Position numbers and translations under genes: made by a program. DNA of 35,910 nucleotides from Deltaproteobacteria bacterium (GTDB lineage: Bacteria; Desulfobacterota; UBA8473): contig JAUXFK010000003.1 in assembly GCA_030623035.1 (NCBI GenBank), positions 1-35,910 on the forward strand, read 5' to 3'. Under the pieces are notes generated by a model that was not told the origin of the DNA, did no database searches, and was given only the letters and a program-made list of their open reading frames with translations. Shown piece after piece: positions 1,897 to 35,671 of this stretch; position 1 is the stretch's first letter; every line of letters starts with the position of its first letter.

Positions 1897-2153
1897 GTTA
1901 ATTGATTTCCCTCAGCAAAAAAATCGGTCACAGCAAGGGCAATCACATTATAAGCCCGTGCAAAACTCGCGCCTGTTATGAGCGTAAAAAAAGAACAGTA
2001 TTGATCTTTGTAATTGAACAGTTACTAATGTATCTGTTCATACGCGTAACCATCAAGCAACACTTCTGTTCTTTCTTAACGCTCTATACACCGCTCAAAC
2101 AGTTGCACGCGTTATAATGTGACCGCCCTTGCTATGTTAACTCAATAAGCATT
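1894..2153 (-). mobile_element. MITE-like palindromic element, family A1
   Basis: Inverted homolog of 27615-27870. TIR-like ends attgttaattga / tcaataagcatt. Perfect 8-bp direct repeat tattgtat at 1886-1893 and 2154-2161. Confidence 0.85.
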
Positions 2154-2175: not shown

Positions 2176-2286
2176 TGATTTTAATCGTTTTTGACGAAAT
2201 TTCTTGAGTTATCTTATTCCAGGATTCAAAATGAAAAGTGAAAATATTAAATTGTTTGAGTGAGCTTGTGAGCGATTTTTATTTTC
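2176..2286 (+). repeat. Degenerate repeat remnant (E-like segment plus TGTTTGAG...GCGATTT hairpin motif)
   Basis: 2176-2232 is similar to 22072-22125. 2253-2278 tgtttgagtgagcttgtgagcgattt lies inside tgaaaata...tattttca arms. Confidence 0.5.
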
Positions 2287-2296
2287 AAATAGGTGA

Positions 2297-4713: not shown

Positions 4714-4988
4714 GTAACAGTTTAGCTTTTTTAAATGTTATTTGCTTCAATGGTGGTCAAATTTTAACGCGTGCAACTGTTTGAACATCTTAGTGAGCGT
4801 TAAGAAAGAACAGGGGAAAAGCCTCGTTTTTCTAGGATGTTAATCGTTCCAAAGCTTATCGGCTGAATTTAATAGCTGAATGCTGTTCTTTCTTTATGCT
4901 CTTTTAGATGCGAGTTCTGCACGGGTTAAAATTTGATTGCCGTTGAAGCTTGGCCAGTGCTTTCTGTTTCATAAGGCTAAAATAATAC
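4714..4988 (+). mobile_element. MITE-like palindromic element, family A2
   Basis: Ends gtaacagtttagc / gctaaaataatac. Flanks gtataaac / atataaac (7/8 duplication). Near-identical to 13672-13899; core homologous to A1. Confidence 0.85.
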
Positions 4989-13671: not shown

Positions 13672-13943
13672 GTAACAGTTTAGCTTTTTTAAATTTTAGT
13701 TGCTTCAACGGTGGTCAAATTTTAACGCGTGCAACTGTTTGAACATCTTAGTGAGCGTTAAAAAAAACAGGGGGAAAGCCTTGTTGTTCTAGGATGTTAA
13801 TCATTCCAAAGCTTATCGGCTGAATTTAATAGCTGAATGCTGTTCTTTCTTTATGCTCTCTTAGATGCGAGTTCTGCACGGGTTAAAATTTGATTGCCGC
13901 TTTAGTGACCGATTTTTTTTGCTGAGGGAACTCAATAGCCATT
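13672..13943 (+). mobile_element. Chimeric A2/A1 palindromic element
   Basis: 13672-13899 matches the A2 copy at 4714. The right end gtgaccgattttttttgctgagggaactcaatagccatt is an A1 end. No target duplication. Confidence 0.85.
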
Positions 13944-16843: not shown

Positions 16844-16876
16844 AAATTAATAAAGGGCATATAGTAGGTAACCGAT

Positions 16877-17581
16877 TTGCTTAGATCCATATACTTCTGG
16901 ATTGTTATTACCGTTATTACCATATTATACCTGCCTGTGGTAGCCTTGAGTCTCCCCTTCAACAAAAGGGGAAGGGTGACACGGTTTCATGTTAATACCT
17001 GGGGCGGGTTGTGTCTCTTTGCCAGTGGTGTGAAGCTTCGAGTAACCGGCATGGAGAACATTATTCAGGATAAACCTCAGATATTAATGTCAAACCACCA
17101 GAGTATGCATGATATTTTTGCATTATGTGCATTGCCGCTTTCCTATAAGTGGTTGGCAAAGAAGGAACTTTTTAAGGTTCCCATTTTCGGTTGCCTGTTG
17201 TACATGATAGGCTGTGTCAGTGTTGACAGGTTTAATCCCCAAAAGGCAAAAAAGGGCATGGATGCTGCTCAGGCTAAAATTCAAAGTGGGGCATCAATAA
17301 TGATCTTTCCCGAGGGAACGAGAAGTTATGATGGTAGACTGCAGCCTTTTAAAAAAGGTGGATTCCTGCTGGCCTTGAAGAAGAAAATCCCCATAGTCCC
17401 GATTACAATCAAAGGCAGCAATGAGATCATGAAGAAGGGGACTATGAAGGTTCATCCAGGAGATATAGATATTATAATTGATGAGCCGATAGAAACCAAA
17501 GATTTACGAGTTAGAGACAGGAGAGACCTTGTTCAAAAGGTTTATGATATAATCAGTAGAAATCTAGGTGAAGATGTCTGA
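16877..17581 (+). CDS. plsC: 1-acyl-sn-glycerol-3-phosphate acyltransferase
   Basis: NHQSMHD and FPEGTRS motifs; TTG start. Confidence 0.92.
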   Translation: MLRSIYFWIVITVITILYLPVVALSLPFNKRGRVTRFHVNTWGGLCLFASGVKLRVTGMENIIQDKPQILMSNHQSMHDIFALCALPLSYKWLAKKELFKVPIFGCLLYMIGCVSVDRFNPQKAKKGMDAAQAKIQSGASIMIFPEGTRSYDGRLQPFKKGGFLLALKKKIPIVPITIKGSNEIMKKGTMKVHPGDIDIIIDEPIETKDLRVRDRRDLVQKVYDIISRNLGEDV

Positions 17582-17634
17582 ATATTAAATCCCCTTAAAA
17601 GCGATGCTTGATATGGTTTTAAAAGGATGCTTTA

Positions 17635-18465
17635 ATGACGGTTCCCCATGCGATTATCTTAGGAATTCTTCAGGGGCTGACGGAATTTTTGCCTGTAAGT
17701 AGCTCAGGACATTTGGTTATTGCGCAGCATTATTTAACGGGATTTAATCAGCCGGGGATCCTATTCGATGTTATGTTTCATATGGGGACGCTATTCGCAG
17801 TTCTGATATACTACAAAAAGGATATCTTCCTTATTTTAAAGTCAATCTTCGATGGGTTTCATGTCCGGCGAGGGTATAAAGATAAAGACTGTGATATATA
17901 TAGATCACAGCGAAGATTTGCGTTATTGATTGTTGTGGGGACTCTTCCCACAATTGCAGTCGGGTTTTTATTTAGGGATCATGTTGGGATTTTATTCGAT
18001 TCTGTTAAGTTCACTGCGTCCATGTTAATTGTAACAGGCATACTTCTGGCTTTTGCGGATCGTATCAAGGTAAAAAAGCGAGATGTAAAAGCCTTAACCC
18101 TTAAGGATTCTCTTCTCATTGGCTTCGTTCAGGGGCTCTCGATTACACCCGGTATTTCTCGGTCAGGTTCTACAATCGCTACAGGCCTGTTCAGAGGGAT
18201 TGATGGTGAAGAAGCTGCAAGATTTTCTTTTTTGCTTTCAATCCCAGCCATTCTGGGAGCAACAGCACTGGAAATTCCGGAAATCTTACACATTAAGGCT
18301 GGTGATATCCTGGCCTGTACAATTGGTACTTTTACTGCTATGATAACAGGTATCCTGGCCATACGGTTTTTTATCAGGATATTAAAGCAGCAAAAGTTAA
18401 GATACTTTGCTTATTATTGTTGGGGTCTTGGATCAATGGTTATACTGCTTAATTTTTTATCATAG
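17635..18465 (+). CDS. uppP: Undecaprenyl-diphosphate phosphatase
   Basis: QGLTEFLPVSSSGH and PGISRSGST motifs. Confidence 0.96.
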   Translation: MTVPHAIILGILQGLTEFLPVSSSGHLVIAQHYLTGFNQPGILFDVMFHMGTLFAVLIYYKKDIFLILKSIFDGFHVRRGYKDKDCDIYRSQRRFALLIVVGTLPTIAVGFLFRDHVGILFDSVKFTASMLIVTGILLAFADRIKVKKRDVKALTLKDSLLIGFVQGLSITPGISRSGSTIATGLFRGIDGEEAARFSFLLSIPAILGATALEIPEILHIKAGDILACTIGTFTAMITGILAIRFFIRILKQQKLRYFAYYCWGLGSMVILLNFLS

Positions 18466-18495
18466 TACACGCATTCTTAAATATGATTACGTATT

Positions 18496-18684
18496 AAGTT
18501 TAAAGTGCCTAAAATGAGCTAAAGTGCCTAAAGTTAAAATATTCTATTTTGATTTCATTCTTAAAATCCGCTCTGATTCTTGCCATGTTTGCTTTATGGT
18601 AGTTTGCTCTAATGGAAGTTCCGTAATACATGACTAATGCTCTGAAAGCGTATTCCTTAACTTTAGTTCACTTTAGGCACTTTA
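18496..18684 (+). mobile_element. Family B element, uninterrupted copy
   Basis: Same terminal taaagtg arrays and core as 15876-16230, without the nested insert. Confidence 0.88.
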
Positions 18685-18761
18685 GGGTTCCCCGAATCCG
18701 ACGGGTCAACGATCGGAACTCTGACCTAAAATACGACACCGAATTTACGAGCTAGAGCACT
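18681..18761 (-). repeat. Module C (81 bp), copy 2, inverted
   Basis: Reverse complement of 15799-15879. Confidence 0.92.
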
Positions 18762-18818
18762 TAACCGGCAGTAAGGTTTCGGATAAAAGGATAAAGTGGC
18801 CGGAATAAAAGAGATAGG

Positions 18819-21092: not shown

Positions 21093-21117
21093 ATTAAACA
21101 CACACCGGAGAAAAACA

Positions 21118-21804
21118 TTGAGAGTTTTTAGGATTATTTTGCTTTTTGGAGCGTTATTCGTTTTACCTGTTTTATTTCCAGAGTTGGCTTCAGGTATTGT
21201 GCTGGAAGAGATTATTGATAAAGTTCAGGGTGTTTATAAAGGGACAAAGGACTTTAAAGCAGAGTTTATTCAAGAATCTATCATCAAGTCGATAGATAAA
21301 ACCGAAGTCTCGAAGGGGAAGATATATTTTAAAAATCCAGGAAAACTCCGCTGGGATTATGATGTTCCTGACAGACAGGAGATTGTTACAGATGGGAAGA
21401 CCCTCTGGATGTATGTGCCTCAAGACAGACAGGTGATGATAAATAAACTCTCCGATGTATATCAATCCAACACCTCTACCTTCTTTCTGTTTGGAATGGG
21501 AGACCTAAAGAGAGATTTTTATATCCATTTGGTCAAACCTGATTCTAATGATGTAGAAAAAGGGTATATATTAAAACTCACCCCAAAAGAGTCACAGCCG
21601 AATATCAGCGAGTTGTTTCTTTTAATAGATAAGGCTACCTTCCAGGTTATAGAAACCTATTTTTACGATTTTTATGAAAATTTTATTCGAATCAAGTTTA
21701 AAAATGCCGTAATAAACAGAGGTTTATCAGATTCGTTATTTGTCTTTACCATCCCTAAAGGTGTAGAGGTTTTAGAGGCGCCCCAGATGTTCGAAGAGCA
21801 ATAA
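21118..21804 (+). CDS. lolA: Outer membrane lipoprotein carrier LolA family protein
   Basis: Signal peptide, F.Q...G..YF.NPGKLRWDY, DGKTLW and F.F..PKG motifs; follows ftsK. Confidence 0.88.
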   Translation: MRVFRIILLFGALFVLPVLFPELASGIVLEEIIDKVQGVYKGTKDFKAEFIQESIIKSIDKTEVSKGKIYFKNPGKLRWDYDVPDRQEIVTDGKTLWMYVPQDRQVMINKLSDVYQSNTSTFFLFGMGDLKRDFYIHLVKPDSNDVEKGYILKLTPKESQPNISELFLLIDKATFQVIETYFYDFYENFIRIKFKNAVINRGLSDSLFVFTIPKGVEVLEAPQMFEEQ

Positions 21805-21817
21805 AACCTTGATATAT

Positions 21818-21950
21818 CTTCCCTTCCTGCCCTCTATAGGGGGCAGGGCCCTGTACTGCGGGGATCGCGAACCTGTCCCCACAGTTCCGAATCATTTACT
21901 GACCGCCGGAGGCATAGTCATAGACAGGGCGCGCAGCCCGGAAGAGAAAG
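21818..21950 (-). ncRNA. Candidate structured ncRNA (family unassigned; 6S-like possible)
   Basis: GC-rich island. Minus-strand stems ctttctcttcc/ggaagggaag, gccctgt/acagggc, actgtggg/cccgcagt and ctgccc/gggcag; G-U pairs favour the minus strand. Confidence 0.5.
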
Positions 21951-22051
21951 CCTGGTCGATACTTAACCCTCCCCTTCAAATTGTCATTTTTTAATTGACA
22001 AAAACCAAATCTTTTGTATTGTTTCTTCGTTTAATCTGAATGAAAAACATC

Positions 22052-22203
22052 GTAACTGTTTAGCCGGATAGTGATTTGTATGGTCTTTGACGAGCATTTT
22101 TGAGTTATTTTGTTAAAGATTCAAATGCCTTCCTTGACCTTGAACAAAATTGCTCATTTCTGGATAGACACTCGTTAGCCCTTTAAAATGGCTAAACAAT
22201 TAC
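22052..22203. mobile_element. Family E MITE containing a family D end
   Basis: TIRs gtaactgtttagcc / ggctaaacaattac. Perfect 8-bp duplication aaaacatc at 22044-22051 and 22204-22211. 22127-22172 is the reverse complement of the D left arm. Confidence 0.85.
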
Positions 22204-22378
22204 AAAACATCAGGAAAAAGGAGTGGTTGTGTTTGAATCAGCAAAAGAGATATTGCTCAAGAAATATCTCTTGATTTTTTTGATAGATTTATTATAATTG
22301 AGAAAAGATTGTTGATTATGACGTTTTTTTAAAGAAATAAAACACAATGAGGTGTAATCTTTTTTGGGGAATAGGAGG

Positions 22379-22402
22379 CAGGGCTTCTTGCCCTGTTTTT
22401 TT
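22379..22402 (+). terminator. Intrinsic terminator-like hairpin just upstream of rfaE1
   Basis: cagggc-ttctt-gccctg followed by T7. Confidence 0.6.
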
Positions 22403-22423
22403 ATGGATTTAGGGCAGATGTAG

Positions 22424-23434
22424 ATGAAGAGGGTTTTGGATGCAAAAAGGGGAATGAAGGTTCTGTCAAGGTTTCAAGAATCAAATGTCCTTGTTCTCGG
22501 TGATATAATGCTAGATGAATTTATATGGGGAAAGGTGTCGAGGATCTCTCCTGAGGCCCCTGTCCCTGTAGTGAATGTTACCTCAGAGAGCTTCCGTTTA
22601 GGTGGAGCCACAAATGTAGTTAATAATATTTTCTCCTTAGGTGGAAATGTATATGTGTGTGGTGTAGTTGGAGATGATGAGAATGGAGAGAAACTGGTTA
22701 ACAGTTTAATGGATATGGGTATTGATACCACTGGAATCATTATTGAAAAGGGCAGGCCTACTTCAGTAAAGACAAGGGTAATCGCCAATAACCAGCAGGT
22801 AGTTCGATACGACCGTGAAGATATTTCTAATATTAACCTGAATAGTATGCAGAAGATCATTTCATACATAAGAACGAATCTGGACAGTATAGATGCAATT
22901 ATTATATCTGATTATGGAAAGGGAATTGTCTCTGAGCAATTGATTCGAGAAATCCGTATTCTGGTTGGAGACAATGATAAGATCATATCAGTAGATCCTA
23001 AAGTGAATCATTTTTCTTATTATAAAGGTGTCACAGTAATTACTCCGAATAACATTGAGGCCGGCGAGGCTACCGGTATTGAGATCGAAGATGAGGAGAC
23101 ATTGCTGCGAGTTGGGGAGGTTTTATTAGACAGATTGGCCTGCAAATTGCTTTTGATTACCCGTGGGGAAGAAGGTATGACGTTGTTTGAGAAAGGCGGA
23201 GATATAACACATATCCCTACATTGGCAAAAGAGGTCTATGATGTAACTGGGGCTGGTGATACTGTAATAAGTGCTTTAACACTTGCACTGACAGCCGGGG
23301 CATCTTTAAAGGAGGCTTCGGCTATTGCCAATTATGCGGCTGGGATTGTAGTAGGGGAGGTAGGGACAGCGACAGTGACCGTGGAAAACTTAAAAGATGC
23401 TATAAAGAGCAATAGAGTCATAAAAGATGAGTAA
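22424..23434 (+). CDS. rfaE1: D-glycero-beta-D-manno-heptose-7-phosphate kinase (HldE kinase domain)
   Basis: RISPEAPVPVV, SDYGKG and DVTGAGDT motifs. Confidence 0.94.
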   Translation: MKRVLDAKRGMKVLSRFQESNVLVLGDIMLDEFIWGKVSRISPEAPVPVVNVTSESFRLGGATNVVNNIFSLGGNVYVCGVVGDDENGEKLVNSLMDMGIDTTGIIIEKGRPTSVKTRVIANNQQVVRYDREDISNINLNSMQKIISYIRTNLDSIDAIIISDYGKGIVSEQLIREIRILVGDNDKIISVDPKVNHFSYYKGVTVITPNNIEAGEATGIEIEDEETLLRVGEVLLDRLACKLLLITRGEEGMTLFEKGGDITHIPTLAKEVYDVTGAGDTVISALTLALTAGASLKEASAIANYAAGIVVGEVGTATVTVENLKDAIKSNRVIKDE

Positions 23435-23960
23435 GCCCAATGTCCCGAAACCAGTAAAACTGATAGCCAGTGTATTTTCAAAGACCAATGAATTGATTGT
23501 AGCAGCAACAGAAGAGTTATCAAGGAAATTTGGCAGGATTGATTTTATTTCTGAGATATTCCCTTTCAACTCCACAACATACTATAATAAAGAGATGGGT
23601 AAAGATCTGATTCGGAGGTTTTTGTCGTTTAATAAAATGATTTTGCCCCATAGACTGCCCGATATAAAACTCTATACCAATAAGATTGAGAAGGATTTTT
23701 CAGATTGTCAGGGGGATAGAAGGTTGAACATAGATCCAGGTTATATTTCCTTAAGCCACTTAATCCTTGCAACAGGGAAAGGATATGCACACAGGCCGTG
23801 TCTGAGAAAAGGGATATATGCTGACTTGACTTTAATATACAAAGATAAGAGATTCCAGGCTTTGGATTGGACATATCCGGACTATAGGTCCAAAGAGATT
23901 ATAGAATTGATGAATACAGTGAGAAGAAACTATGTATTCCAACTTAAAGGGTTAAAATGA
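23427..23960 (+). CDS. DUF4416 family protein
   Basis: TTYY.KEMG, R.LNIDPGY, LAT.K..HR and WTYPDY motifs. Confidence 0.85.
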   Translation: MSKPNVPKPVKLIASVFSKTNELIVAATEELSRKFGRIDFISEIFPFNSTTYYNKEMGKDLIRRFLSFNKMILPHRLPDIKLYTNKIEKDFSDCQGDRRLNIDPGYISLSHLILATGKGYAHRPCLRKGIYADLTLIYKDKRFQALDWTYPDYRSKEIIELMNTVRRNYVFQLKGLK

Positions 23961-23967
23961 GAGAACG

Positions 23968-24846
23968 ATGTTAAAGAGTATGACTGGTTATGGATGGGGA
24001 GAGAGTCTTTTGGAAGATGGCGGTATCGTTGTTGAGGTAAAGTCGGTTAACCACAGATACCTTGATTTTACTTCGAGAGTGCCAAAGAGGTTTCTCTCCT
24101 ATGAGAGTGAGATAAGAAAGGATATATATAAAAGATTTTCCAGAGGGCGTTTTGAGGTTACTATTCAATCAAATTATACGAAAGAAGGGGAACAAAAGGC
24201 AGAGTTAAATATTGAGTTAGCAAAAGAGTATTATTCAGCCTTAAGAGAATTAAAGGACAGGTTACAACTCGATGACGAGATAGGTTTGGGTTTGCTTGCC
24301 GGGTTAAAAGATGTAATTATTGTTAAGGAGATAGATTCCGAGCATAAAGGGGAACAAGATGCATTTAAAGAAGCTTTTGAGAGTGCATTAGATTCTTTAG
24401 AAAGAATGAGAGTATTTGAGGGCGAAGTTATTTATAAGGATTTTTTAGAGAAATTGGGTACTGTCAGGAGGTTAATTGATGAAATTAGAATAAAATCCCC
24501 CCAGGTTTTGATCTATTATAGAGACAGGCTTGCAAAAAGAGTAAAGGAGCTAAGCGGTGCCTTTGAACTTGATATTCAAAGGCTTAATCAAGAAGTCGCT
24601 TTATTTGCAGAAAAAAGTGACATTACAGAAGAGCTTGTTCGCATTGGAAGCCATCTTGAACAGTTCGGTATGATTATAGACATGGATGAGCCCGTTGGAA
24701 GGAAGTTGGATTTTCTACTTCAAGAGATAAATCGTGAAGCCAATACCATAGCGTCCAAGGCGAATGACTCGGAGATTTCACAGAAGGTTGTAAAGATTAA
24801 AAGTGAACTGGAGAAGATCAGGGAACAGGTTCAAAACATAGAATAA
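23968..24846 (+). CDS. yicC: YicC/YloC family endoribonuclease
   Basis: [31 protein letters not shown] and REQVQNIE motifs. Confidence 0.95.
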
Positions 24847-24881
24847 CAATAATTAGATCTTATATGAGTTGGAGGTTATTG

Positions 24882-25139
24882 ATGAGTTTGTTATTGAATA
24901 TCGGATTTGGAAATGTAGTTGTATCATCAAGAGTAGTAGCGATTGTTTCTCCTAGCTCTGCCCCTATGAAGAGGTTAAAGGATGAGGCGAAAAAGGACAG
25001 GAAGCTGATAGATGCTTCTCAAGGGAGGAAGACCCGATCTATTATAATAACGGACAGTAATCATGTTATCCTATCCGCAGTTCAGGCGGAGACTGTGGCG
25101 CAGAGATTCGATTCTGAAGATGGTTCAAAAACGTATTAA
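24882..25139 (+). CDS. remA: DUF370 / RemA family protein
   Basis: NIGFGN, SAPMKRL and [16 protein letters not shown] motifs. Start placed behind ggagg at 24871. Confidence 0.9.
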
Positions 25140-25167
25140 TTAAACAGGATTTAACAGACCAAAGCAA

Positions 25168-25782
25168 ATGGATAAAGAGGGATTATTGTTTGTATTATCA
25201 GCCCCATCTGGTGCTGGGAAAACATCATTATGTAAAGAGGTCGTTAGTTTTTTTCCTGATCTATGGCACTCTGTATCATACACTACGAGGCCTTGTAGGC
25301 CAGGGGAGAACGATAGAGTTGATTATCATTTTGTCTCCAAAGAGAAGTTCAAAGAGATGGTTGATACCAGGAAATTTGCAGAATGGTCTGAGATTTATGG
25401 GGATAGATATGGCACTCCAATAAACGCCTTGAAAGAGCATAAAAGCAATGGAATTGACATGATTCTCGATATAGATGGAAAAGGGGCCAGACAGCTCAGG
25501 GATAGCTTTCCAAAAGGTATCTATATATTCGTACTTCCTCCATCGTGGGAAGATCTGGAGGAGAGACTAAGGGCTAGAATGACGAATACGGATAAGGAGA
25601 TTAAAAAACGTTTGAAAAATACAAAAAAAGAGCTTCAGTATATTTTTGACTACGATTATATAGTTATAAATAATAACTTCGAAACGGCAGTATTCGAACT
25701 CATTTCAATAATAATTGCAGAAAGATGCCGCAGAGAGAGGGTCTTTCATAAGGTTGATGAACTATTAAAACCGGGCCTTTGA
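25168..25782 (+). CDS. gmk: Guanylate kinase
   Basis: SAPSGAGKT, SYTTR..RPGE and YGT motifs. Confidence 0.97.
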   Translation: MDKEGLLFVLSAPSGAGKTSLCKEVVSFFPDLWHSVSYTTRPCRPGENDRVDYHFVSKEKFKEMVDTRKFAEWSEIYGDRYGTPINALKEHKSNGIDMILDIDGKGARQLRDSFPKGIYIFVLPPSWEDLEERLRARMTNTDKEIKKRLKNTKKELQYIFDYDYIVINNNFETAVFELISIIIAERCRRERVFHKVDELLKPGL

Positions 25783-25801
25783 ACCGCTTTAAACTTAAAT
25801 A

Positions 25802-25943
25802 GTGTCCATCCAGAAATGAGCGATTTTGTTCAAGGTCAAGGAAGGCGAAGCTTTTAACCACAGGAATATATTGAGATATTTCGAGGATTAAAATCTGAGC
25901 CTGACACAGAGATTGGGCAAAAGGGCCATTTATGGATGGACAC
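25802..25943. mobile_element. Family D MITE, full length
   Basis: TIRs gtgtccatccagaaatg / catttatggatggacac. Perfect 6-bp duplication taaata at 25796-25801 and 25944-25949. Confidence 0.88.
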
Positions 25944-26413
25944 TAAATATTTGCCCGTTCATCTATGAGATCGTGTTCTTTTGTATCTTGAAGTAAACTC
26001 TTTAACTCTTCTATATTTAAACTCCCCATAGTCTCTATATAAAAATTTCCGCTCCAAAGCTTTTTTATCCTGTACTTCTTCTGTATCTCCCTATGCCTAT
26101 TTAAGATTGAAAATGATGTCCTTTCTATTATATCCTTAACAATGCCGGGTATGTAATGGGTGGGTTTGGCACATAAAATCAGATGGGCATGGTCTGGATG
26201 AAGAACCAGCCCAAATAACTCGTATCCCTTATAAAGAGTAATTTCTTTAAAGATTATTTCCAGTTCTGTTGCTGTTTTACTGGTAATTATAGGCTGTTTC
26301 TTGGGTGTAAAGAGTATCAGATGATAACTGATCCTATATGCAAGGTCTGAATATCTATTATAATTTGTTTCCTTAAGGGGTTTGAAATAGGAGCAAAGGA
26401 TAATATGGGGCAT
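25943..26413 (-). CDS. IS200/IS605 TnpA (Y1 HUH)-like protein, catalytic Tyr absent
   Basis: YHLILFTPK, PDHAHL (HUH) and LWSGNFYIETMG are present, but the YIxxQ helix reads LKSLLQDT. Confidence 0.8.
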   Translation of the reverse strand: MPHIILCSYFKPLKETNYNRYSDLAYRISYHLILFTPKKQPIITSKTATELEIIFKEITLYKGYELFGLVLHPDHAHLILCAKPTHYIPGIVKDIIERTSFSILNRHREIQKKYRIKKLWSGNFYIETMGSLNIEELKSLLQDTKEHDLIDERANI

Positions 26414-26469
26414 ATTTTTTTGTGAAATTTTAAATCCCTCTTTTTAAACTGACCTTTAAGTATGATTGA

Positions 26470-27519
26470 TCAGGGAAAGAGGGGCAGGTTCTTTATCCCT
26501 GAGTCCTCAGGGAATCCATACATAATGTTCATATCTTGAATTGCTTGCCCTGAAGCGCCTTTAACCAGATTGTCTATTGCAGATATTACGACTATCCTTT
26601 TTGTCCTTGGATCGAATCGCATTCCTATATCACAGAAATTGCTCCCTTTAACCAAAGAGATATTGGGAAGACTGTCTTCAGGGTGTATTCTTACAAATCT
26701 CTCTTTACTATAGAAATCGGTGTAAATCCCTATTAACTCTGATGTTGAAATGTCTTGAAGGGAGTTTGAATATATAGTGGTCAGTATACCTCTATTTACG
26801 GGTATTAAATGTGGAGTAAAAGAGATGATGACATTTTTATGGGCAAGCAGGCTTAACTCTTGCTCTATCTCAGGTGTATGCCTGTGTTCTCCTATCTTAT
26901 AAGCATTAAGCCCTTCATTAACCTCACAGAAAAGATATTCCGTTGCCACTGTTCGACCGGCCCCAGAGACACCTGATTTGGAGTCCACAACTATATTTTT
27001 TATGTCTATTAAATTGTTCTTCAGTAAAGGGGCGAGTCCGAGTATCGCACTGGTTGGGTAACAACCCGGATTGGCAATAAGTTTCGCCTTTTTTATTTTA
27101 TCCCTGTGCAACTCAGGAAGGCCATAGACAGACTCCTTTAAAAGGTCTGGGGAGGTGTGGCTGCTATACCATTTTTCATAGACCTCAGGATTATTAAAGC
27201 GAAAATCCGCACTGAGGTCTACGACCTTTTTACCCCTCTTCATCAACTCGGGAACGATATTCATTGCTACCTTATGCGGTAAAGCACAGATTATGAAATC
27301 AGAGAGATTACAGATATGATCTGGCGATGGGCTTGTAAATTTAAGGTTTATTTCTGAAGCAAAGGCAGGAAAGACTTCCGACACCTTCATTCCATCAAAC
27401 TTTCTTGATGTCAATGCGGTTATCTTTGCATCCGGATGTCTAAGCATAAGTCTGATCAGTTCTTGACCTGTATACCCACTTGCACCAATTATTGCAACTT
27501 TTAGCATCTTTTTTCTCAC
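26470..27519 (-). CDS. argC: N-acetyl-gamma-glutamyl-phosphate reductase
   Basis: [23 protein letters not shown] and [11 protein letters not shown] motifs. Confidence 0.98.
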
Positions 27520-27525
27520 TGATCT

Positions 27526-27602
27526 CCACAGAAATGCCCCTTTTGCCCAATCTCTTCACTTTCTTTGATCTGAAACAGGATTACTCATTTCTGGATGGAC
27601 AC
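27526..27602 (-). mobile_element. Internally deleted, degenerate family D element
   Basis: aaatgccccttttgcccaatctct ... ctcatttctggatggacac match both ends of D in reverse orientation. Confidence 0.8.
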
Positions 27603-27614
27603 ATAATAATAAAT

Positions 27615-27870
27615 AATGGCTATTGAGTTAACTCAGCAAAGGCGGTCACATTATAACGCGTGCAACTGTTTGAGCAGTGTAGTGAGCGTTAAGAAAGAAC
27701 AGGAGATTGTTTCTTGGTTGTGAGTCGTAACATATTTATTTGTGACTGTCTAATTCAAATGATCAATACTGTTCTTTCTTTATGCTCACTAAATCGCGAG
27801 TTTTGCACGGGTTATAATGTGATTGCCTTTGCTGTGACCGATTTTTTGAAAAGAGAAGTCAATAACCATT
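27615..27870 (+). mobile_element. MITE-like palindromic element, family A1
   Basis: TIRs aatggctattga / tcaataaccatt. Flanks taataaat / taataaaa. Long internal inverted repeat. Confidence 0.88.
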
Positions 27871-27874
27871 TAAT

Positions 27875-27902
27875 AAAAAAAAGGCCAAAGAGGCCTTCTT
27901 TT
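27875..27902 (-). terminator. Intrinsic terminator of rplM-rpsI
   Basis: aaggcc/ggcctt hairpin followed by U8 on the minus strand. Confidence 0.7.
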
Positions 27903-27917
27903 AGATATATAGAAGTT

Positions 27918-28310
27918 TTACCTCTTGGAGTATTGAAATCTTGCCCTTGCCCCTTTTTGTCCGTATTTCTTTCGTTCTTTGATTCTTGAATCCCTGGTTA
28001 TAAACCCAGCCTTCTTTAAAATCGGTCTAAAATTGTCGTTTACCTCTAATAGTGCCTTTGTTATACCGTGTTTTATCGCTCCAGCCTGACCGGATGTGCC
28101 TCCACCTCGGACAGTCGCAAACACGTCGTAATTCTCAGATGTGGCAGTTAATCCAAACGGTTGCCTGATTACCATCTTTAAGGTTTCACGTTTGAAATAT
28201 TCATCGATGGATTGGTTGTTAATCTTAAATTTACCACTGCCGGGTTTTAACCATACCCTCGCTATGGATGACTTTCTCTTTCCTGTTGCATAAAAACTCT
28301 CTTCTGCCAT
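27918..28310 (-). CDS. rpsI: 30S ribosomal protein S9
   Basis: [17 protein letters not shown] and C-terminal [16 protein letters not shown]. Start MAEES follows ggagg. Confidence 0.98.
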
Positions 28311-28376
28311 TAAAAACTCCTCCATTTTCAAACAAAATAGATCACTGGAGAGGGGATAAAGGGGTCATTGTCCTTA

Positions 28377-28805
28377 TTAAATATCCAGGATTTCAGGATT
28401 TTGAGCCTCGTGTGGATGTTCATCTCCAGCATATATCTTTAATTTTGTAATCATTTTTCTGCCAAGTCTGTTTTTGGGTAACATGCCTTTTACAGCCAGC
28501 CTTATAAGCTCCCTGGGGTCTTTTTGCTGTAACTTCTCTGCAACAATCGATTTGAGACCTCCAGGATAACCACTATGGTGATAATAAACCTTCTGTTGTA
28601 GCTTTTTCCCTGTTAGAATAATCTTCTTTGCATTTATAATAACTATAAAATCTCCTGTATCTACATGGGGTGTATAGATAGGTTTATGCTTCCCCCTCAG
28701 TATTATAGCACTCTTGCTGGCCAGCCTTCCAAGGGCTTCCCCCTTTGCGTCTATTAAATACCACTTTCTTTCAAATTCACCCGCTTTGGCACTGAAAGTC
28801 TTCAT
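28377..28805 (-). CDS. rplM: 50S ribosomal protein L13
   Basis: [24 protein letters not shown] and HPHEAQ motifs. True start MKTF at 28805. Confidence 0.98.
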
Positions 28806-28845
28806 TGTCTTCTCCAAACTCCGCTCGTTGTTTATAAACTTTGAT

Positions 28846-28874
28846 ATATTAGTGGTTTTCTTTTTTTTTGTCAA
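28846..28874 (-). promoter_or_regulatory. sigma70 promoter of rplM (TTGACA-17-TAATAT)
   Basis: Perfect -35 with a 17-bp spacer on the minus strand. Confidence 0.7.
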
Positions 28875-28982
28875 GCAAAATGTGGGCTTGCATAGGGGTG
28901 CTTCAAAATAAACTGTACCATTTTTCAGATTGCAGTAGGATTCCTTATAAGCAGTTGCAAGGTATGATTTTACAACCCTTTT

Positions 28983-29003
28983 TGAGTTAACCCAATAGCC
29001 ATT
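28983..29003. repeat. Solo A1-type terminal repeat
   Basis: tgagttaacccaatagccatt is the reverse complement of the A1 end at 27615 with 1 mismatch. Confidence 0.7.
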
Positions 29004-29021
29004 CACAACTTATGAACTCAT

Positions 29022-30449
29022 TTAGAGGAGAAACTCAGCAGACTGAATTCCGTAGGCCGAGGGATGAATGCTTTTTTTAATATTTCGTAGATATGAGCCT
29101 TTTTGAGTATCCAATTCTTCCAGACTGACAGTCTTTCCTTTTCTAAAACGGCCTTGATCATCAGACAACAATAAAACGACCCGAGGTCGAGCTTTATCGC
29201 TATCTTCAGGGGATTCGATTACTAGACCCAATTCATCTGTGTCCAGTTTCAAAAGTGTTCCCACCGGATAGATCCCTAACATATTGATAAATAATTTTAG
29301 CAGGATTGGATCATAATCTTCCCCTATCTTTTCAAGCATAGTTTCAAGAGCACGGTCTGGGCTAAATGGAGCAGGTCGATATACCCGAGCAGATGTAAGG
29401 GCGTCGAAGACATCTGCTATGGTTATGATTCTTCCGAACAGGCTTTGGCTTTTCTTTCTATTCAGCCGAGGATAACCTGAAAGATTGAATTTCAGATGAT
29501 GCTCGAAAGGAGGAAGAAAGCTTTCGACCTTAAAGTCATTTGAAGCATTTAATTGGATGATATATTTCACGCTTCTCAAAGGGTGTTTCTCTATCTCCTC
29601 AAACTCTTCATCGCTCAATCGACCGGGCTTATTAAGGATATCCAGGGGTATGTCCAACTTTCCCAAATCGTGAAGAAGCCCACAGATGCCGAGTTTTCTT
29701 AAAGACATTTTCGATAGCCCAATTTGTTTCCCAAGACACAGGGAGAGTAACGCAACATTGACCGAGTGGGTATATGTGTAGTCATGATAATCCCGAATCG
29801 TGCTTAAACTGAGGAGTATGGGCTTATCCTCGGTATGCATGTCCATCATATCTTGAATAATCCGTTTTATCTTCCGAACTCCCACCTTTTTTTGTGAGCC
29901 TAATTTATCGGTCAATTCTTTTAACGAGGTCAAGGCATTAAAGTAACCTTTTAGGGCCAATTCCTTTCGTTCGAGATCGTGTTCCTGAAGGTCTGTCTCT
30001 TCTCCCTTCTCGATCTGTATCCATGAAAACTCCTTCCTCTTACTGAGTTGCATTACGAGCCAATCTATGGGATCCTCTTGACCTTCAGCTTTGTTTAGGA
30101 TGCGTATAAAACTCAGGATATTATCATAAGAGGCATCCTTGATGGCTGCAAAGAAGCGAAGCCCTCGAAGCTTTCGATTTTTGAAGTAATCGAGCATCTC
30201 TTGGACGAGACTTAAGTTATCACGTCGGTAGGGAAGCTTCTCTTCCTCCAGGTAGAACCTATCACGGGACATAGAAATCATCAAAGATCTCTCGTGCACC
30301 CACCAAGGAGCCAGGACTTCGTTGAACTCTTTCGCACAGTCTAAAAGTAACTGATTGTTATCCTGGTGGATCTTGACGGACTGAACGAGCCTATACAGGA
30401 GTCTAAGAAAATTCTCTCCTAAAAGGGTTTTTTGTTTTTCTAAATCCAT
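29022..30449 (-). CDS. HD-GYP domain protein (cyclic dinucleotide phosphodiesterase-like)
   Basis: YTYTHSVNV, LHDLGK, EHH..SGYP and ADVFDALTSARVYR motifs. Confidence 0.9.
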   Translation of the reverse strand: MDLEKQKTLLGENFLRLLYRLVQSVKIHQDNNQLLLDCAKEFNEVLAPWWVHERSLMISMSRDRFYLEEEKLPYRRDNLSLVQEMLDYFKNRKLRGLRFFAAIKDASYDNILSFIRILNKAEGQEDPIDWLVMQLSKRKEFSWIQIEKGEETDLQEHDLERKELALKGYFNALTSLKELTDKLGSQKKVGVRKIKRIIQDMMDMHTEDKPILLSLSTIRDYHDYTYTHSVNVALLSLCLGKQIGLSKMSLRKLGICGLLHDLGKLDIPLDILNKPGRLSDEEFEEIEKHPLRSVKYIIQLNASNDFKVESFLPPFEHHLKFNLSGYPRLNRKKSQSLFGRIITIADVFDALTSARVYRPAPFSPDRALETMLEKIGEDYDPILLKLFINMLGIYPVGTLLKLDTDELGLVIESPEDSDKARPRVVLLLSDDQGRFRKGKTVSLEELDTQKGSYLRNIKKSIHPSAYGIQSAEFLL

Positions 30450-30460
30450 TTTTTATCCAG

Positions 30461-32155
30461 TCAACTGTATGCCTTCATGGCCTTTCGGTAGGCAATTCGC
30501 ACACTTGGAAACAGGCTTCTGGAAGCCTTTTTCAGGATATCTTTTGCTTCCTCTGTCTCCAATAAGATCAAAGCGATTGCTGCGCCATTCCGATGTGATG
30601 ATCTGGTATTACTGGGTATCCAAGCTTTTGTTAAAAGATGTTTTTTTAAAAACGGGGCTGAAACAGAGGAGCCACATTTCCCCAGGATTCTATAACAGGC
30701 CAGTAGGTGCTCGCGATCTGTGTTTTGCCCCACCTTTTTTTCAATATAGTCTAGTAACAGACTTTCTGCCAGCTCACTTTTTTGGCTGCCCATATAGTTC
30801 AACAATAATTGTCGAATCTCCTTGTTATCATCTTCGATTAATGGGAAAAGCTTCTTGAGCAACTGCGCATCTCTTTTGAGCAAATGTTTGAGTGCCTGTT
30901 TGCGTACCCCATAAGAAGAATGGTGGGTCATGCTTAGAAGTATCTGAGTAGGTTTTTCCCCCTCAAGCTGCCCCAGTACATAGACAAGCTTTTGGGCTGT
31001 AGAATCGTCTGATTGATTCATCAATAGCTCTAAGGGACGGATATCTTTCCTTGCCAAGACCTTGATGACTTCCATGACTTCTCTTTGTATACCTGGGGAT
31101 TGAATCTGAGGTAACATAGGACCAATTGTAAGAATCGCCCTTGAGGGAAGGAGTATGAGCAGCTGCTTTAAAGGCTTCATTTGGTTTTGATCAAGCATGT
31201 CCAAAGTGGACCAAAACCGTAAAAGAACGCCTAGGACATCGGGGGTTGTGGTTTTAACAAAAAAACTGTCTATTAAAGCAGACGCCCATGGGTTATTGGA
31301 TTTGTATGTTTTTTGGATTTTATATAATTCGTTAGTGAGTTTGAGCGCAAATTGAAATTCGGCTTGCTCAAGAGAATGTTGAAACTCATTTTTCAGAAAT
31401 TCTAAAACAATGATAAAGTCGGTTTTGGAACTTTGATCAGTGAGGAGAATTGTCAGCAATTCCAAAAGGTCTTGCCTAGTGTTATAATTCTCCTGAACCG
31501 CGATCATCTTTCGAAGTTTACTGACTTCTTCGGGTGTCAATTTCCAGAAGTTTTCTTCTTTGCTTTCTGGCGGTATCGCCATTGGAATGTCTTGTATCTC
31601 TTCCTGCTGGGCTGTGTTATTGCTTTCAGACTCACTTGCATGGAAAAGGGACAAATCGAGTGATAGTTCAGCCTCCCAATAAACATCTGTGGCTTGGTAC
31701 CGTATATGAGGAAAATCTGATTCCCAAAGCGCTGTTACCAAATCCCCTTCAGCCTCGTCTTGCGGATCCTTGTAATGGTCTATCGTCTTGATAAAGTCGT
31801 TGATTTCATCTTGGGATAGGCCTTCTCTTATCTCAAGCCATTGAATACCATCTCGAAAAAAGATGAAGGCCAATCCCTCTTTTTCAGGTGGGTCTTGATG
31901 CAAAACTTGGTTTTTATAGAGAAGCTGTTTCTTATTCACATCGATTTTTATGACATGGAAATTCTTCAATAAGTCATCGATATGGGCATTGACTTTGGCG
32001 ATAGAATTTTGACAAATGGTATGATTCTCAGGATAAAGCGAATAGTTTTTTAGGGCTATCAATACGAGCTGTATTACATCTCTGATTGCCCTAAGTTCTT
32101 TGCTTGTTGGAAAATTATCTAAAAGGTCTAAACCTCTACCCGCTGTTTTATCCAT
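30461..32155 (-). CDS. HEAT-repeat protein partnered with the HD-GYP gene
   Basis: N-terminal LYP.NH and DLVTALWE motifs with C-terminal HEAT-like repeats. Confidence 0.75.
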   Translation of the reverse strand: MDKTAGRGLDLLDNFPTSKELRAIRDVIQLVLIALKNYSLYPENHTICQNSIAKVNAHIDDLLKNFHVIKIDVNKKQLLYKNQVLHQDPPEKEGLAFIFFRDGIQWLEIREGLSQDEINDFIKTIDHYKDPQDEAEGDLVTALWESDFPHIRYQATDVYWEAELSLDLSLFHASESESNNTAQQEEIQDIPMAIPPESKEENFWKLTPEEVSKLRKMIAVQENYNTRQDLLELLTILLTDQSSKTDFIIVLEFLKNEFQHSLEQAEFQFALKLTNELYKIQKTYKSNNPWASALIDSFFVKTTTPDVLGVLLRFWSTLDMLDQNQMKPLKQLLILLPSRAILTIGPMLPQIQSPGIQREVMEVIKVLARKDIRPLELLMNQSDDSTAQKLVYVLGQLEGEKPTQILLSMTHHSSYGVRKQALKHLLKRDAQLLKKLFPLIEDDNKEIRQLLLNYMGSQKSELAESLLLDYIEKKVGQNTDREHLLACYRILGKCGSSVSAPFLKKHLLTKAWIPSNTRSSHRNGAAIALILLETEEAKDILKKASRSLFPSVRIAYRKAMKAYS

Positions 32156-32258
32156 TCGCCTATTTTTCCTTACTGGCTAAAATGACGGATTTGATTAAAC
32201 ACCCGTTCTACTTTTTTCTTAGACATCTTAAAGTTCTATTATGAAATTATTTCTATGC

Positions 32259-33059
32259 CTATCCTACCATGCTGTATCCGCCGCTTACGCTGAGGACCTG
32301 GCCGGTAATATGACCTGCTGCTTTATTTGAGCCAAGAAATACGACTGCATTGGCTATGTCCTGGGGCTTCCCAATCTTGCGAAGGGGGTATGCCTTTGAG
32401 ATCTTCTCCAGTTGTTCAGGGGTAAAGAAGTCTTTGGACTGCTTCCACATGCTTTTATCTCCAATCTCCACGTCTTCTGATGGCACTGTTACTCCAGGAC
32501 ATACAATATTTGCCCTTATCCCGTTACGACCGTTTTCCCTGCCGATGGTCTTCATAAAACTGTTAACAGCAGCTTTGACCCCACCATAGACTGCCTCTTT
32601 GAATTCACCCTGCCGACTGGCATCTGAACTAATGCTGACAATTGCCCCGCTTTTCTTTTCTATCATATAATCAAGGGCTGTTTTGGTACAGTTCAATACC
32701 CCCACGTAATTGATAGTTATGACTTTGTTCCAAAAATCTGGAGTTGTATCGACAAAAAGCATGAGGTTATCCCAGCCAACATTGTTGACCAAGACATCGA
32801 TCTGCCCGAACTCTTCGAAACCTTTCTTAAACATAGCCTGTACATTGTCCAGACTCGTTACATCACATTTGACTGTTATGGTCTTACCACCGGCATTTAA
32901 AGCATTGGCCTCTTTTACAACCTTTTCAGCCTGTTCTGTATCGACATCTCCGATCACCACATTTGCACCTTCTCTTGCAAAGGTTAAAGATATAGCCCGA
33001 CCAATATTGGATCCTCCTCCAGTAACGACTACGGTCTTTCCCTTATAATCTAAGTCCAT
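32259..33059 (-). CDS. SDR oxidoreductase (BadH-like hydroxyacyl-CoA dehydrogenase type)
   Basis: TGGGSNIG, NNVGWD, SSDA and YGGVK motifs. Start MDLDY follows aggagg. Confidence 0.88.
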   Translation of the reverse strand: MDLDYKGKTVVVTGGGSNIGRAISLTFAREGANVVIGDVDTEQAEKVVKEANALNAGGKTITVKCDVTSLDNVQAMFKKGFEEFGQIDVLVNNVGWDNLMLFVDTTPDFWNKVITINYVGVLNCTKTALDYMIEKKSGAIVSISSDASRQGEFKEAVYGGVKAAVNSFMKTIGRENGRNGIRANIVCPGVTVPSEDVEIGDKSMWKQSKDFFTPEQLEKISKAYPLRKIGKPQDIANAVVFLGSNKAAGHITGQVLSVSGGYSMVG

Positions 33060-33193
33060 TTTAAATCCTCCTTTTGATATGATTTTAGTAATAAATGCCT
33101 GTGCCTTTTTTATCAAGATAGGAGATGTGTGTCAATAAAATTATAGAAGAAAATTTTTGTAAATAAGCCTGTAATACTCCAAACCCCTTTTAC

Positions 33194-33222
33194 TTGACAA
33201 TGTGAGTCTATTTGGCTATATT
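33194..33222 (+). promoter_or_regulatory. sigma70 promoter (TTGACA-17-TATATT) toward otsA
   Basis: Near-consensus -35 and -10 boxes. Confidence 0.6.
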
Positions 33223-33341
33223 CCCTTTCATTGAACAGGTGTTCATCCAGCCGTCCCAACAGATTACTCTGTCTGGAAAGCTAAGCCCTGCCCAACTTGT
33301 CTTGACTTTCTTTTTTCTTTATAATAGTCTTTCAATTATTA

Positions 33342-33578
33342 CTACAGCGGCAGTTTTTACAAGCTGTTTGAGAGACCTCTTGACGAACATATATTGATTT
33401 TTTTGTCAATCGTTCTTAGTTCTGTGGAGCACAAAAATCTTAAGTTGTTTGAGGGCGATAGCCCGAGTTCTTAAGATTTTGCGCAGAGAACTTAGAACGA
33501 TTAAAAAACTCAATCCGAGTGAGGAAAGAGGCCTCTCGAACAGGCTGTTAGCGGGATTATCCGAAAGTGTCGCTGTAG
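33342..33578. mobile_element. Family F long palindromic MITE-like element
   Basis: Nested inverted arms ctacagcg/cgctgtag, tgtttgagag/ctctcgaaca, aatcgttct/agaacgatt, aaaatcttaag/cttaagatttt and apical gggc-gata-gccc. Flanked by tatta direct repeats. Confidence 0.82.
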
Positions 33579-33622
33579 TATTATAGTTCCTATTTTAAGT
33601 AACCCATGTTGGAGGCTGTATC

Positions 33623-34791
33623 ATGGATAGGTTGTTGATCATTTCCAATAGGTTGCCGGTCAGTATTGAAAAAAGAAAGGGTGCTTTGCACTTTCATCCG
33701 AGTGTTGGAGGTTTAGCAACTGGCTTAAGTGCGTTATATAAATCATACAGTAGCATATGGATAGGTTGGCCTGGGATAGCGCTGGATAATATCAAAGAAG
33801 GAGCGGAAGAGATCGAGACAAAATTGATGTCCGAGCTTGACTGCAAACCTATTTTCCTCTCACAAACCGATATTGAAAAGTACTATCATGGTTTTAGTAA
33901 TCGGACACTATGGCCGCTCTTCCATTACTTTCCCCAATATGTAGTCAATGATAGAAGTTTCTGGGAGGCCTATAAAAGGGTAAATAAGCTTTTCAGTGAT
34001 TCTGTCCTGGAGATTGCAAGAAAAGGGGATACAATATGGATACACGATTTTCACTTAATGTTACTCCCAAGTCTAATAAGGGAGAAATTGCCTGATGCAG
34101 CGATAGGCTTTTTTCAGCATATACCCTTTCCATCTTTTGAGATCTTTCGCTTGCTTCCATGGCGTGAGGAAATCCTGGAAGGTTTATTAGGGGCTGATTT
34201 GATAGGTTTCCATACGTATGATTATGCAAGACATTTTCTATTAAGTGTGCACCGGTTGTTAGGTTACGAATATAGTATGGGTCAAATCAATGCCCATGAT
34301 CGCATAATTCGAGTAGATACATTCCCAATGGGGATAGATTATGCACGATTTTCAAATGCTGTTTATAATCCAGAAGTAAAAAAAGAGATTGCCAATTTAC
34401 AAGACAAGCTACATGACCGTAAAATAATAATATCAATAGATCGGTTAGACTACACAAAAGGAATTCCACAGCGCCTGGAAGCTTTTTCAGCCTTTTTGAA
34501 TAGAAACCCGGAGTATAAAGAGAAGGTGAGTTTTATCCTGGTTGCTGTTCCTTCCCGTACACAGGTAGAACATTATCGGTTACTGAAGAAGGAGGTAGAC
34601 GAACTTACCGGTAAGATTAATGGGGAGCATGGAAGGATTGGTTGGGTACCTGTTTGTTATCTTTACCGCTTTTTAGATTTTCCTGCACTTGTTGCTTTAT
34701 ATATTGTCGCTGATGTTGCTGTTGTTACCCCCCCCCCATTAGGGACGGCATGAATCTCATAGCATTGCACCAATGTGGAGGCCTTGTATGA
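33623..34791 (+). pseudogene. otsA: Trehalose-6-phosphate synthase (GT20), frameshifted and 3'-truncated
   Basis: SNRLP, GGLA, WIHDFHL, HIPFP and DRLDYTKGI motifs. IRDGMNLIA is out of frame after a C10 tract (34728-34737), and homology then stops. Confidence 0.85.
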
Positions 34792-35671
34792 TCTTTGAAG
34801 GTATAGCTATAGGAATTTTAACAAATTTATTCTCTCCAGAAAACATTCAGAAAATATACGATAGGCTGAGAAAGAAAAAAAGAACGCAAAAAATTGAAAT
34901 AAAGGATATCAGAAAATTCTGGAAGATATATAGGACAAGCGAGCTTGAACTGAAAGATGGTATGCTTATAAAGATAAAAGGGACTCTTTCAAAGTACGCA
35001 CCAATGATTATTGGCGATCCTAAGGAGAAGAGGGAACTTCATGAACAATATCGAAAAAAGTTGGACAAAGAAAAGGTAAAGGAGACCAGCGTAATTGATC
35101 CTATACTTAGTTTGACTTCAGGGAATACTGTGTGGCGTATAAACCCAATTGGTGATTTTATATACTTTGGATTATACCAAGGTATAGCAAGAAATTCAAT
35201 TCCGGTTTTTGTTAGAAACGACTATTATAGTTCAATAGAGGGGATTTTTTTAAAGATGATAATCCGTACTGTGTAGATGTAGTTCTAACTGGAATTTTGG
35301 GGGAATTTCCTTCCGAAACTATCAAGAAAGTCGAGGTTATTGGGGAGGGGCCAGTTCATGGATTATTTGTAGGTGATGATAATACAAAAATAGAATATCT
35401 GAAAGAAGCAAGCTATTTAGATGGAGACATTTGGATTGCTCTGAAATATGAAGAAGGAGAACATATGATTAGTAGATTTCTTGATCTTGGAGATATCGAG
35501 GACTTTGAAGACGAATGTGAAAAATTGAAAGAAGATATCAAAAATATTTGTTCAAAGTTATCAAATTCAAAAGTAATTTTACAATTTGACCAAATCCATC
35601 GACTTTTGTCTGTAAAACAGACAATTGAAATTGGGGATTGCTGGAAAAAGCTTTACAATAAATCCAAATAA
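34788..35671 (+). CDS. Hypothetical protein split into two ORFs by a -1 frameshift near 35245-35255
   Basis: RBS ggagg precedes ATG 34788. The second frame is open from 35231 to 35671 and overlaps the first across T7-AAAG. Confidence 0.6.

Follow-up and report, generated by a model that had tools for sequence, protein, structure and literature searches.

Motif-bearing repeats in the window

The window analyzed here, a stretch of 35,910 nucleotides from a Deltaproteobacteria bacterium (contig JAUXFK010000003.1), contains palindromic repeats of families A, F, H and R, together with an IS200-like Y1 gene (Table 1). The F repeat holds a hairpin at 33440-33475 with the sequence cttaag-t-TGTTTGAG-GGC-GATA-GCC-CGAGTT-cttaag, and the motif within it reads exactly as in the initial annotation of this DNA. 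The same motif had been ascribed to all four full-length A copies, and we found it at each of these loci as tgcaacTGTTTGA...gCGAGTT(c/t)tgca, spanning 4778-4916, 13736-13873 and 27667-27802 on the plus strand and 1964-2101 on the minus strand. A remnant at 2253-2278, within gaaaata/tattttc arms, likewise proved to be as described. The characterization of the motif as non-complementary, however, held only in part: TGTTT is unpaired, but the AC that precedes TGTTTGA forms pairs with the GT in CGAGTT, the T and A of the motif are also able to pair, and GA lies opposite GA.

A search for TGTYTGA-N4-170-CGAGTT returned six matches in the window against one for a backwards-read control, and 131 in the whole assembly (2.57 Mb in 268 contigs, 85% complete) against 18 for the backwards-read control and 30 with the halves swapped. 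Each half taken alone was mildly enriched in the window (TGTYTGA, 18 against 11.0 expected; CGAGTT, 16 against 10.2). Among the 131 matches were 13 of 23-24 nt, which are F-type, 37 of 45 nt or 51-54 nt, which are A forms with an internal deletion, four of 81 nt, and 59 of 134-140 nt, which are full-length A. The motif is therefore real, statistically solid and far broader than the window. A coding reading was rejected, as the inner hairpin changes in length by non-multiples of three and its frame, judged by eye, depends on the family.

The window also holds a further repeat family of TAAAGTGCCTAAAGT-like units (15799-16236 and 18496-18761), with two arms (15799-15882 and 18678-18761) that are complementary at 98% and lie on either side of ispF, bacA and a gene for an acyltransferase; metagenome contigs reached summed depths of 892-11596 in this bin, against about 10 for unique DNA. 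In the AT-rich spacer from lolA to a pfkB-family kinase gene, a GC-rich island (21830-21960 and 22375-22400) contains the short palindromes ggggcagggccctg and gcagggcttcttgccctg.

Table 1. Features of the palindromic repeats and the Y1 gene (positions are those of the window)
Feature	Position	Strand	Description
F motif	33446..33469	+	TGTTTGA, G-GGC/GCC-C inner hairpin with GATA loop, GAGTT; sequence inspection
F-full	33340..33580	+	241 bp nested hairpin; terminal inverted repeats TACTACAGCG / CGCTGTAGTA
A copy 1 (A1-full)	4714..4988	+	275 bp; terminal repeats begin GTAACAG; motif halves 4778-4784, 4911-4916
A copy 2	13672..13943	+	motif halves 13736-13742, 13868-13873; right end of the other A subfamily
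A copy 3 (A2 subfamily)	27603..27847	+	motif halves 27667-27673, 27797-27802
A copy 4 (A2 subfamily)	1917..2153	-	motif halves 2095-2101, 1964-1969
H family, diverged copy	2215..2290	+	motif-like TGTTTGAG...CGATTT at 2253-2278; by-eye comparison with ~10 H copies (model R1)
G-full			~235 bp; begins AGTTCA; 4-nt flanking repeat perfect at 8/10 loci (by eye)
R	25801-25944 (partial copies 22127-22177, 27529-27602)		144 bp; begins AGTGTCC; identical 4-nt flanks at 27/48 full copies, all of A..T form
Y1 (IS200-like) gene	25943-26413	-	IS200 model 74 bits (cut-off 55); RAYT model 26 bits (cut-off 80)

A common layout across the families

The motif occupies the same place in a layout common to all families. 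From the outside in, an outer helix is followed by a bulge of 2-3 nt (CT or TT) on the 3' strand, a clamp of 2-3 bp (AAC/GTT, AGT/GTT or AC/GT), an unpaired 5' TGTTT, a 5' GA opposite the GA of the 3' CGAG, and an inner helix, which is a GC hairpin of 4-5 bp in F, G and H and an arm of ~125 nt in A. Every family has the head (C/T)TGTTT and a 5' loop of 5 nt (TGTTT). In F, G and H this module is central or nearly so; in A it is far off centre. The whole F element folds at -85 kcal/mol (z -6.9 against shuffles), and the whole A element folds with a z of -7.2 against shuffles. An origin of the inner hairpin by nested insertion was rejected because the repeats on either side of it are inverted and not direct.

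Model R1, derived from 11 F-type hairpins, gave 36 matches at E ≤1 in this genome, with the F motif class scoring highest (70.2 bits), and revealed family G (~12 copies) in addition to H (~10 copies). Further blocks are common to F, G and H outside the motif, such as AGCGA...TTAGA...CAAAAA on the 3' side. F, G, H and the remnant at 2253 are therefore homologous along their length, with covarying stems. The motif had been placed in otherwise unrelated hairpins, and this does not apply to F and the remnant. It does apply to A and F, whose flanks gave local-alignment z values of 2.1 and 0.4 (18 and 173 of 500 shuffles scored as high) against ~11 for two A subfamilies. With no similarity detectable in their flanks, A and F do not behave as diverged homologs along their whole length, a possibility that the initial annotation had raised against its own proposal.

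Invariant loop letters between covarying helices

A elements were present in four of the 13 family genomes at 72-87% identity to the window copy. RNAalifold on 36 aligned A copies from these four genomes gave 51 pairs, 22 of them with compensatory change, including GTGCA/TGCAC to GTGTA/TACAC directly beside the motif. The strict motif was kept in 24 of 32 A copies fetched from relatives and missing from the other eight, and several other A blocks were as conserved as the motif. Among 36 distinct hairpins of the F/G/H type from 15 genomes, the inner helix was 90% paired, with compensatory change at three of its four pairs (for example CG in 14 against GC in 13), and the outer helix was 68% paired in the model-fitted alignment. 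The covariation score was reached by none of 500 shuffles. When the partners were slid by one column, 67% still paired, because the length of the bulge varies.

The motif columns of the F/G/H-type hairpins were almost invariant, and about 14 loop letters remained constant while the adjoining stems were wholly replaced between families and phyla. The earlier claim that the motif is conserved where the stems differ thus extends, with compensatory substitutions in the helices, to the whole genome, the 13 family genomes and other phyla. A recognition determinant would be expected to show just this, fixed loop letters between covarying helices.

Miniature transposon-like palindromes as carriers

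The elements that carry the motif are miniature transposon-like palindromes of several families, 144-276 bp in length, with terminal inverted repeats and target duplications. F-full is flanked by TTAT at 33336-33339 and 33581-33584, and 4-nt direct repeats (TTAA or TTAT) were found at four of six full F copies; a second TGTTTGA in F-full, at 33365, lies in the paired outer stem. The 8-nt repeats flanking A copy 1 (4706-4713 and 4989-4996) are identical at seven of eight positions, and over 15 full A1 copies the duplication was perfect at 10, matched at seven of eight positions at two and was absent at three. A copy 3 adjoins the partial R element at 27529-27602. In sister genera, G-full is the most frequent carrier of the motif. 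The positions of the carriers are mostly intergenic, and many directly follow stop codons. A same-genus genome (G001) lacks F at the orthologous site between dehydrogenase and glycosyltransferase genes and lacks A at the orthologous site between gyrB and gyrA, and these empty sites fix the ends of the elements. Metagenome contigs over 15000-34900 end at repeats, with joints that only mirror other repeat copies, and none of them bridges an empty site. The repeats break this and related assemblies into hundreds of contigs.

Target duplications of fixed length indicate DDE transposases, and the module is therefore not needed to explain the mobility of its carriers. No autonomous partner with the same ends was found in this or the related assemblies, which are fragmented. 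A pair of half-elements in genome G010 brackets a gene for a CBS-domain protein, not a transposase, and in Butyrivibrio the end pattern occurred only as pairs 176-190 nt apart.

The R family, for which BLAST gave at least 125 matches here (93-98% identity), has ends like those of G. It comprises at least 48 full copies, and where F and G carry the motif, the centre of R shows no more than a degenerate form of it. In one chimeric repeat (C209:2778-2835) the 5' half is from R and the 3' half from F, with the joint at the apex, and on contigs C184 and C110 an H element is directly followed by R. Such chimeras suggest recombination or nested insertion among the families.

Spread of the motif beyond the genome

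Related genomes had been proposed as the place to search for the pattern, and there model R1 found hairpins of the F/G/H type in 11 of 12 other family genomes (2-46 each), with single matches in four of 28 genomes elsewhere in the phylum. In an exact scan for TGTTTGAG-SSS-N3-6-SSS-CGAGTT with one genome per species, which gave at least 125 matches, the motif-hairpin appeared in Betaproteobacteria, Firmicutes, Myxococcota, Bacteroidota and others. Among the 125 matches listed, 68 had at least seven of eight flank positions paired, for which ~3% was computed for random sequence, and 52 of these 68 strict matches had the same 2-nt bulge; about 11 of the matches listed look like chance, with no flanking repeat. 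The matches listed include MAGs of Desulfobacterales, Syntrophaceae and Desulfuromonadales; Gallionella, Rhodoferax, Polaromonas, Aquabacterium, Acidithiobacillus, Zoogloea, Dechloromonas and Silvimonas; Polyangium and Nitrospirae; Butyrivibrio, Eubacterium, Lachnospiraceae, [Clostridium] fimetarium, Desulfotomaculum and Selenomonadales; and Bacteroidota, Cyclobacterium, Campylobacterales and Phycisphaeraceae.

A looser pattern gave 34 matches against four for the reversed control in Acidithiobacillus, Butyrivibrio, Rhodoferax, Gallionellaceae and Syntrophus (8, 8, 5, 5 and 8 matches against 0, 0, 0, 3 and 1). In distant genomes the motif lies inside long hairpins of ~200-250 nt, and the GC content of the carriers ranges from AT-rich to GC-rich with the loop letters unchanged. 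None of 150 candidates from these same five distant genomes matched model R1; as its helices are AT-rich and only these 150 were scored, the result is no evidence in either direction. An alignment of 51 cross-phylum sequences (MAFFT/RNAalifold) recovered the inner helix alone, because the lengths of the outer helices vary too widely. At loci of Gallionellaceae (L263, L273, L278 and L283) and Rhodoferax (L262-L282), a GC hairpin and a T run precede the motif hairpin, and a second conserved hairpin with a AAGAAAAAGT-type stem follows it, along with more GC mini-palindromes; the unit in Betaproteobacteria is larger and not a simple palindrome.

The Y1 gene and the search for a reader protein

The Y1 gene of the window is single-copy in eight of 13 family genomes (54-78% identity) and adjoins gmk at six of seven ortholog loci, and thus behaves as a domesticated gene would. 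Its HUH histidines are intact. At the position of the catalytic tyrosine, placed by comparison with solved transposases, the window protein has L and four orthologs have S, D, D and C, so that the residue is kept in three of eight orthologs and absent from five, the window's own included. The R element directly downstream has its own 4-nt duplication, and the Y1 stop codon lies at the junction with it.

With model R1, a motif hairpin was found near only one of the eight Y1 ortholog loci, and a search for TGTNNGAG...CGAR within 1.5 kb of Y1 genes gave nothing at seven Y1 loci in four distant carriers; the Syntrophus MAG that carries the motif had no Y1 match. The initial annotation had suggested looking for co-occurrence with a protein family, and here matches to the RAYT model (E ≤1e-5) occurred in 11 of the 13 genomes of the family, but 18 of 28 genomes from elsewhere had them too. 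RAYT-like genes being common both with and without the motif, their co-occurrence with it is uninformative. A link to RAYT was accordingly rejected on the one in eight and zero in seven loci together with this uninformative co-occurrence. The proposal of a recognition determinant bound by a protein therefore fared unevenly, being backed by the fixed loop between covarying helices but left without a partner among the Y1 and RAYT proteins that we checked.

Elsewhere in the assembly, contig C229 (147-587 and 625-745) carries a canonical IS200 copy (143 bits) with ordinary end hairpins and a short A element directly downstream. We rejected this IS200 as a partner of the motif, as its end hairpins are unrelated to it, and the adjacent A copy is probably a coincidence.

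A candidate single-strand docking site

We tentatively read the module as a REP-like hairpin of single-stranded DNA and a putative docking site for a structure-specific protein, the likeliest of the readings considered though somewhat short of probable. The analogy with REP motifs had been drawn in the initial annotation, and the layout of TGTxxGAG, GC stem and CGA is indeed that of the Pseudomonas and Xanthomonas REPs tabulated in PMC2817692. The motif would then be the invariant core of a structural module riding in miniature palindromes (A, F, G and H) that move as DNA and leave target duplications of 4 or 8 bp. The module may work once one DNA strand folds, either as single-stranded DNA in replication or transposition or as an extruded cruciform, and the folded form could then dock the protein. 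RAYT proteins read REPs as folded single strands, which together with the same order of parts makes the REP analogy the best available lead. An HUH/Y1 protein of the RAYT or IS200 type would be the leading candidate for the reader, with a host nucleoid or repair protein as the alternative. The carriers, however, have target-site duplications, which Y1 enzymes are not known to make.

The motif and its architecture are shown, as are the covariation, the mobility of the carriers and the reach across phyla; that the module acts as DNA rather than RNA we infer, as we do the class of protein. If the elements were instead transcribed with their neighbours, a protein or RNase could bind or cut the tandem-GA loop in the RNA, which resembles a kink-turn or the CUGANGA...GAAA core of hammerheads, and affect the stability or processing of mRNA, which we consider unlikely. 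Such an RNA motif would accord with the strong folds of both F and A, with the covariation, with the intergenic positions of the elements, many of them directly after stop codons, and with a GA opposite GA beside a helix, which is the signature of kink-turns and hammerheads. Tandem GA/GA is stable in DNA too. The motif strand of A has many G-U columns, a strand asymmetry that counts for a folded DNA strand as well: in a mirror alignment of 49 A copies, mismatches of the G.T type outnumbered those of the A.C type by 321 to 81 on this strand, and departures from consensus pairs in 47 copies by 199 to 93, many of these mismatches being inherited and hence not independent events. In the cross-phylum outer helix (12 flank positions, 48 elements) there was no G.T excess (34 G.T against 54 A.C), which speaks against a general strand rule.

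Orientation speaks against the RNA reading. Scored relative to neighbouring co-directional genes, 20 elements were sense and 36 antisense in this genome, six and four in sister genomes, and four and three in distant genomes, giving 30 against 43 over all sets, without a sense preference. The 5' loop has 5 nt where kink-turns have 3, the third stem that a hammerhead needs is lacking, and no gene of the L7Ae family (PF01248) was matched in this 85%-complete assembly. Rfam gave no match at the gathering threshold in the window, and 11 element loci gave three miRNA-like matches below it, at 23-24 bits (thresholds 70-98). RNA hairpins favour tetraloops, and apical GNA triloops are unusual in them; among the cross-phylum apical loops 76 of 114 were triloops, 57 of them GNA closed by C-G (GCA 26, GAA 18, GTA 12 and GGA 1). 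The GCGNAGC-type DNA mini-hairpin treated in PMC13037366 is of the same type as these GNA tips.

We regard it as rather improbable that the module is an architectural aid to transposition, a stable distortion at the centre or midway along an arm, or a site for a bending protein of the host such as IHF or HU, that brings the ends of a short stiff element together and so helps any DDE transposase. This would explain why one module is common to families whose ends differ and whose duplications measure 8 bp in A but 4 bp in F, G and R, as well as its central or near-central place in F, G and H, and the complementary strand in A, TCAA-N4-TTG, is the core of the IHF consensus. However, the IHF-like reading needs AAC before the motif, which only 22 of the 68 strict cases among the matches listed have, and IHF is not known from the Firmicutes carriers. 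Moreover, a covarying GC hairpin would be needless in a duplex-binding site, the module of A is far off centre, and R thrives without the exact motif. Least probable of all, at long odds in our estimate, is that the letters have no function of their own and are shared by descent or recombination of selfish repeats, seeming conserved because the copies arose recently or passed from one lineage to another. Homology of F, G and H does reach beyond the motif, chimeras such as the R 5' half with the F 3' half exist, many other A blocks are equally conserved and decayed copies lose the motif, as did eight of the 32 copies from relatives, but the stems have turned over fully across families and phyla around the same ~14 loop letters, the flanks of A and F are not alignable, and these letters are the same in AT-rich and GC-rich carriers.

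Returning to the folded single-strand docking site, the module has a bearing beyond this genome. Small palindromic repeats fill the intergenic DNA of bacteria, and a reader protein is known only for REPs. Here the loop letters and a fixed layout persist in AT-rich sediment bacteria, GC-rich Betaproteobacteria and rumen Firmicutes while their surroundings are replaced, and such conservation argues for a common molecular reader. It is conceivable, if doubtful, that CTGTTTGAG-(GC mini-hairpin)-CGAGTT, together with the AC/GT clamp and the 2-nt bulge, marks a new pan-bacterial class of DNA elements that fold as single strands, related to REPs but more widespread, with members in at least eight phyla, served by one reader protein family and repeatedly captured by, or capturing, different transposons; its reader would then define a new interface between host and mobile elements. 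The motif is a simple searchable handle, and the cultured carriers include Butyrivibrio hungatei, Rhodoferax ferrireducens and Acidithiobacillus sulfurivorans.

Comparison with known systems

We found no description of the motif in the literature searched, subscription journals and ISfinder lying outside that search. Among known systems, REPs are the natural point of reference. In Table 1 of Nunvar et al. (2010, PMC2817692), REPs of Pseudomonas and Xanthomonas such as TGTGGGAGCGGGCgTGCCCGCGAA, TGTAGGAGCGGATTCATCCGCGAT and GTAGGAGCGCGCTCGCGCGCGA share with the motif the order TGT-xx-GAG, a GC-rich stem with a short loop, and CGA. Both are also multicopy and extragenic, with a signature on one strand and GCGNAGC-like tips, as far as the REPs of that study go (PMC2817692). 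In our genome a GC-rich palindrome lies 3' of the head, there are 131 matches, and most copies are intergenic. Within that order only the two letters before GAG differ, the motif having the head GTTT and the REPs in that table GT[AG]G, as GTAG or GTGG (PMC2817692). Moreover, the motif hairpin lies inside larger palindromes (144-276 bp) that bear terminal repeats and target duplications, its range is far wider and includes Firmicutes, Bacteroidota and Myxococcota, and no single-copy cognate RAYT flanked by motif repeats was found at the loci examined. The module thus departs from REP systems in two features that define them, the GT[AG]G head and a RAYT gene with its own repeats beside it.

Integron attC sites resemble the module in having an unpaired spacer between AAC...GTT pairs and, beyond it, a GC-rich terminal hairpin of variable sequence, and in that they function in one folded strand. 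Here, however, AAC/GTT lies within a longer helix and not at its base, an L box is lacking, and the elements lie between housekeeping genes, not in cassette arrays. Kink-turns and hammerheads are alike in the GA on each strand that abuts a helix and in the asymmetric, pyrimidine-rich 5' loop. They differ in the length of that loop and, for the module, in the lack of a third stem, an L7Ae gene, an Rfam match and an orientation bias; the kink-turn combination of a 3-nt bulge, tandem G.A/A.G pairs and an L7Ae protein is not present here.

The carriers, finally, are much like bacterial MITEs such as ERIC/IRU and Correia/NEMIS, being short, non-coding, near-palindromic and intergenic, with terminal inverted repeats, target duplications of fixed length and internal deletion derivatives; the terminal repeats and fixed-length duplications by which MITEs are recognized are both present. 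Ordinary MITE families, however, conserve their ends, whereas here the ends are specific to each family, starting GTAACAG, TACTACAG, AGTTCA or AGTGTCC, and it is the internal module that is conserved across families and phyla.
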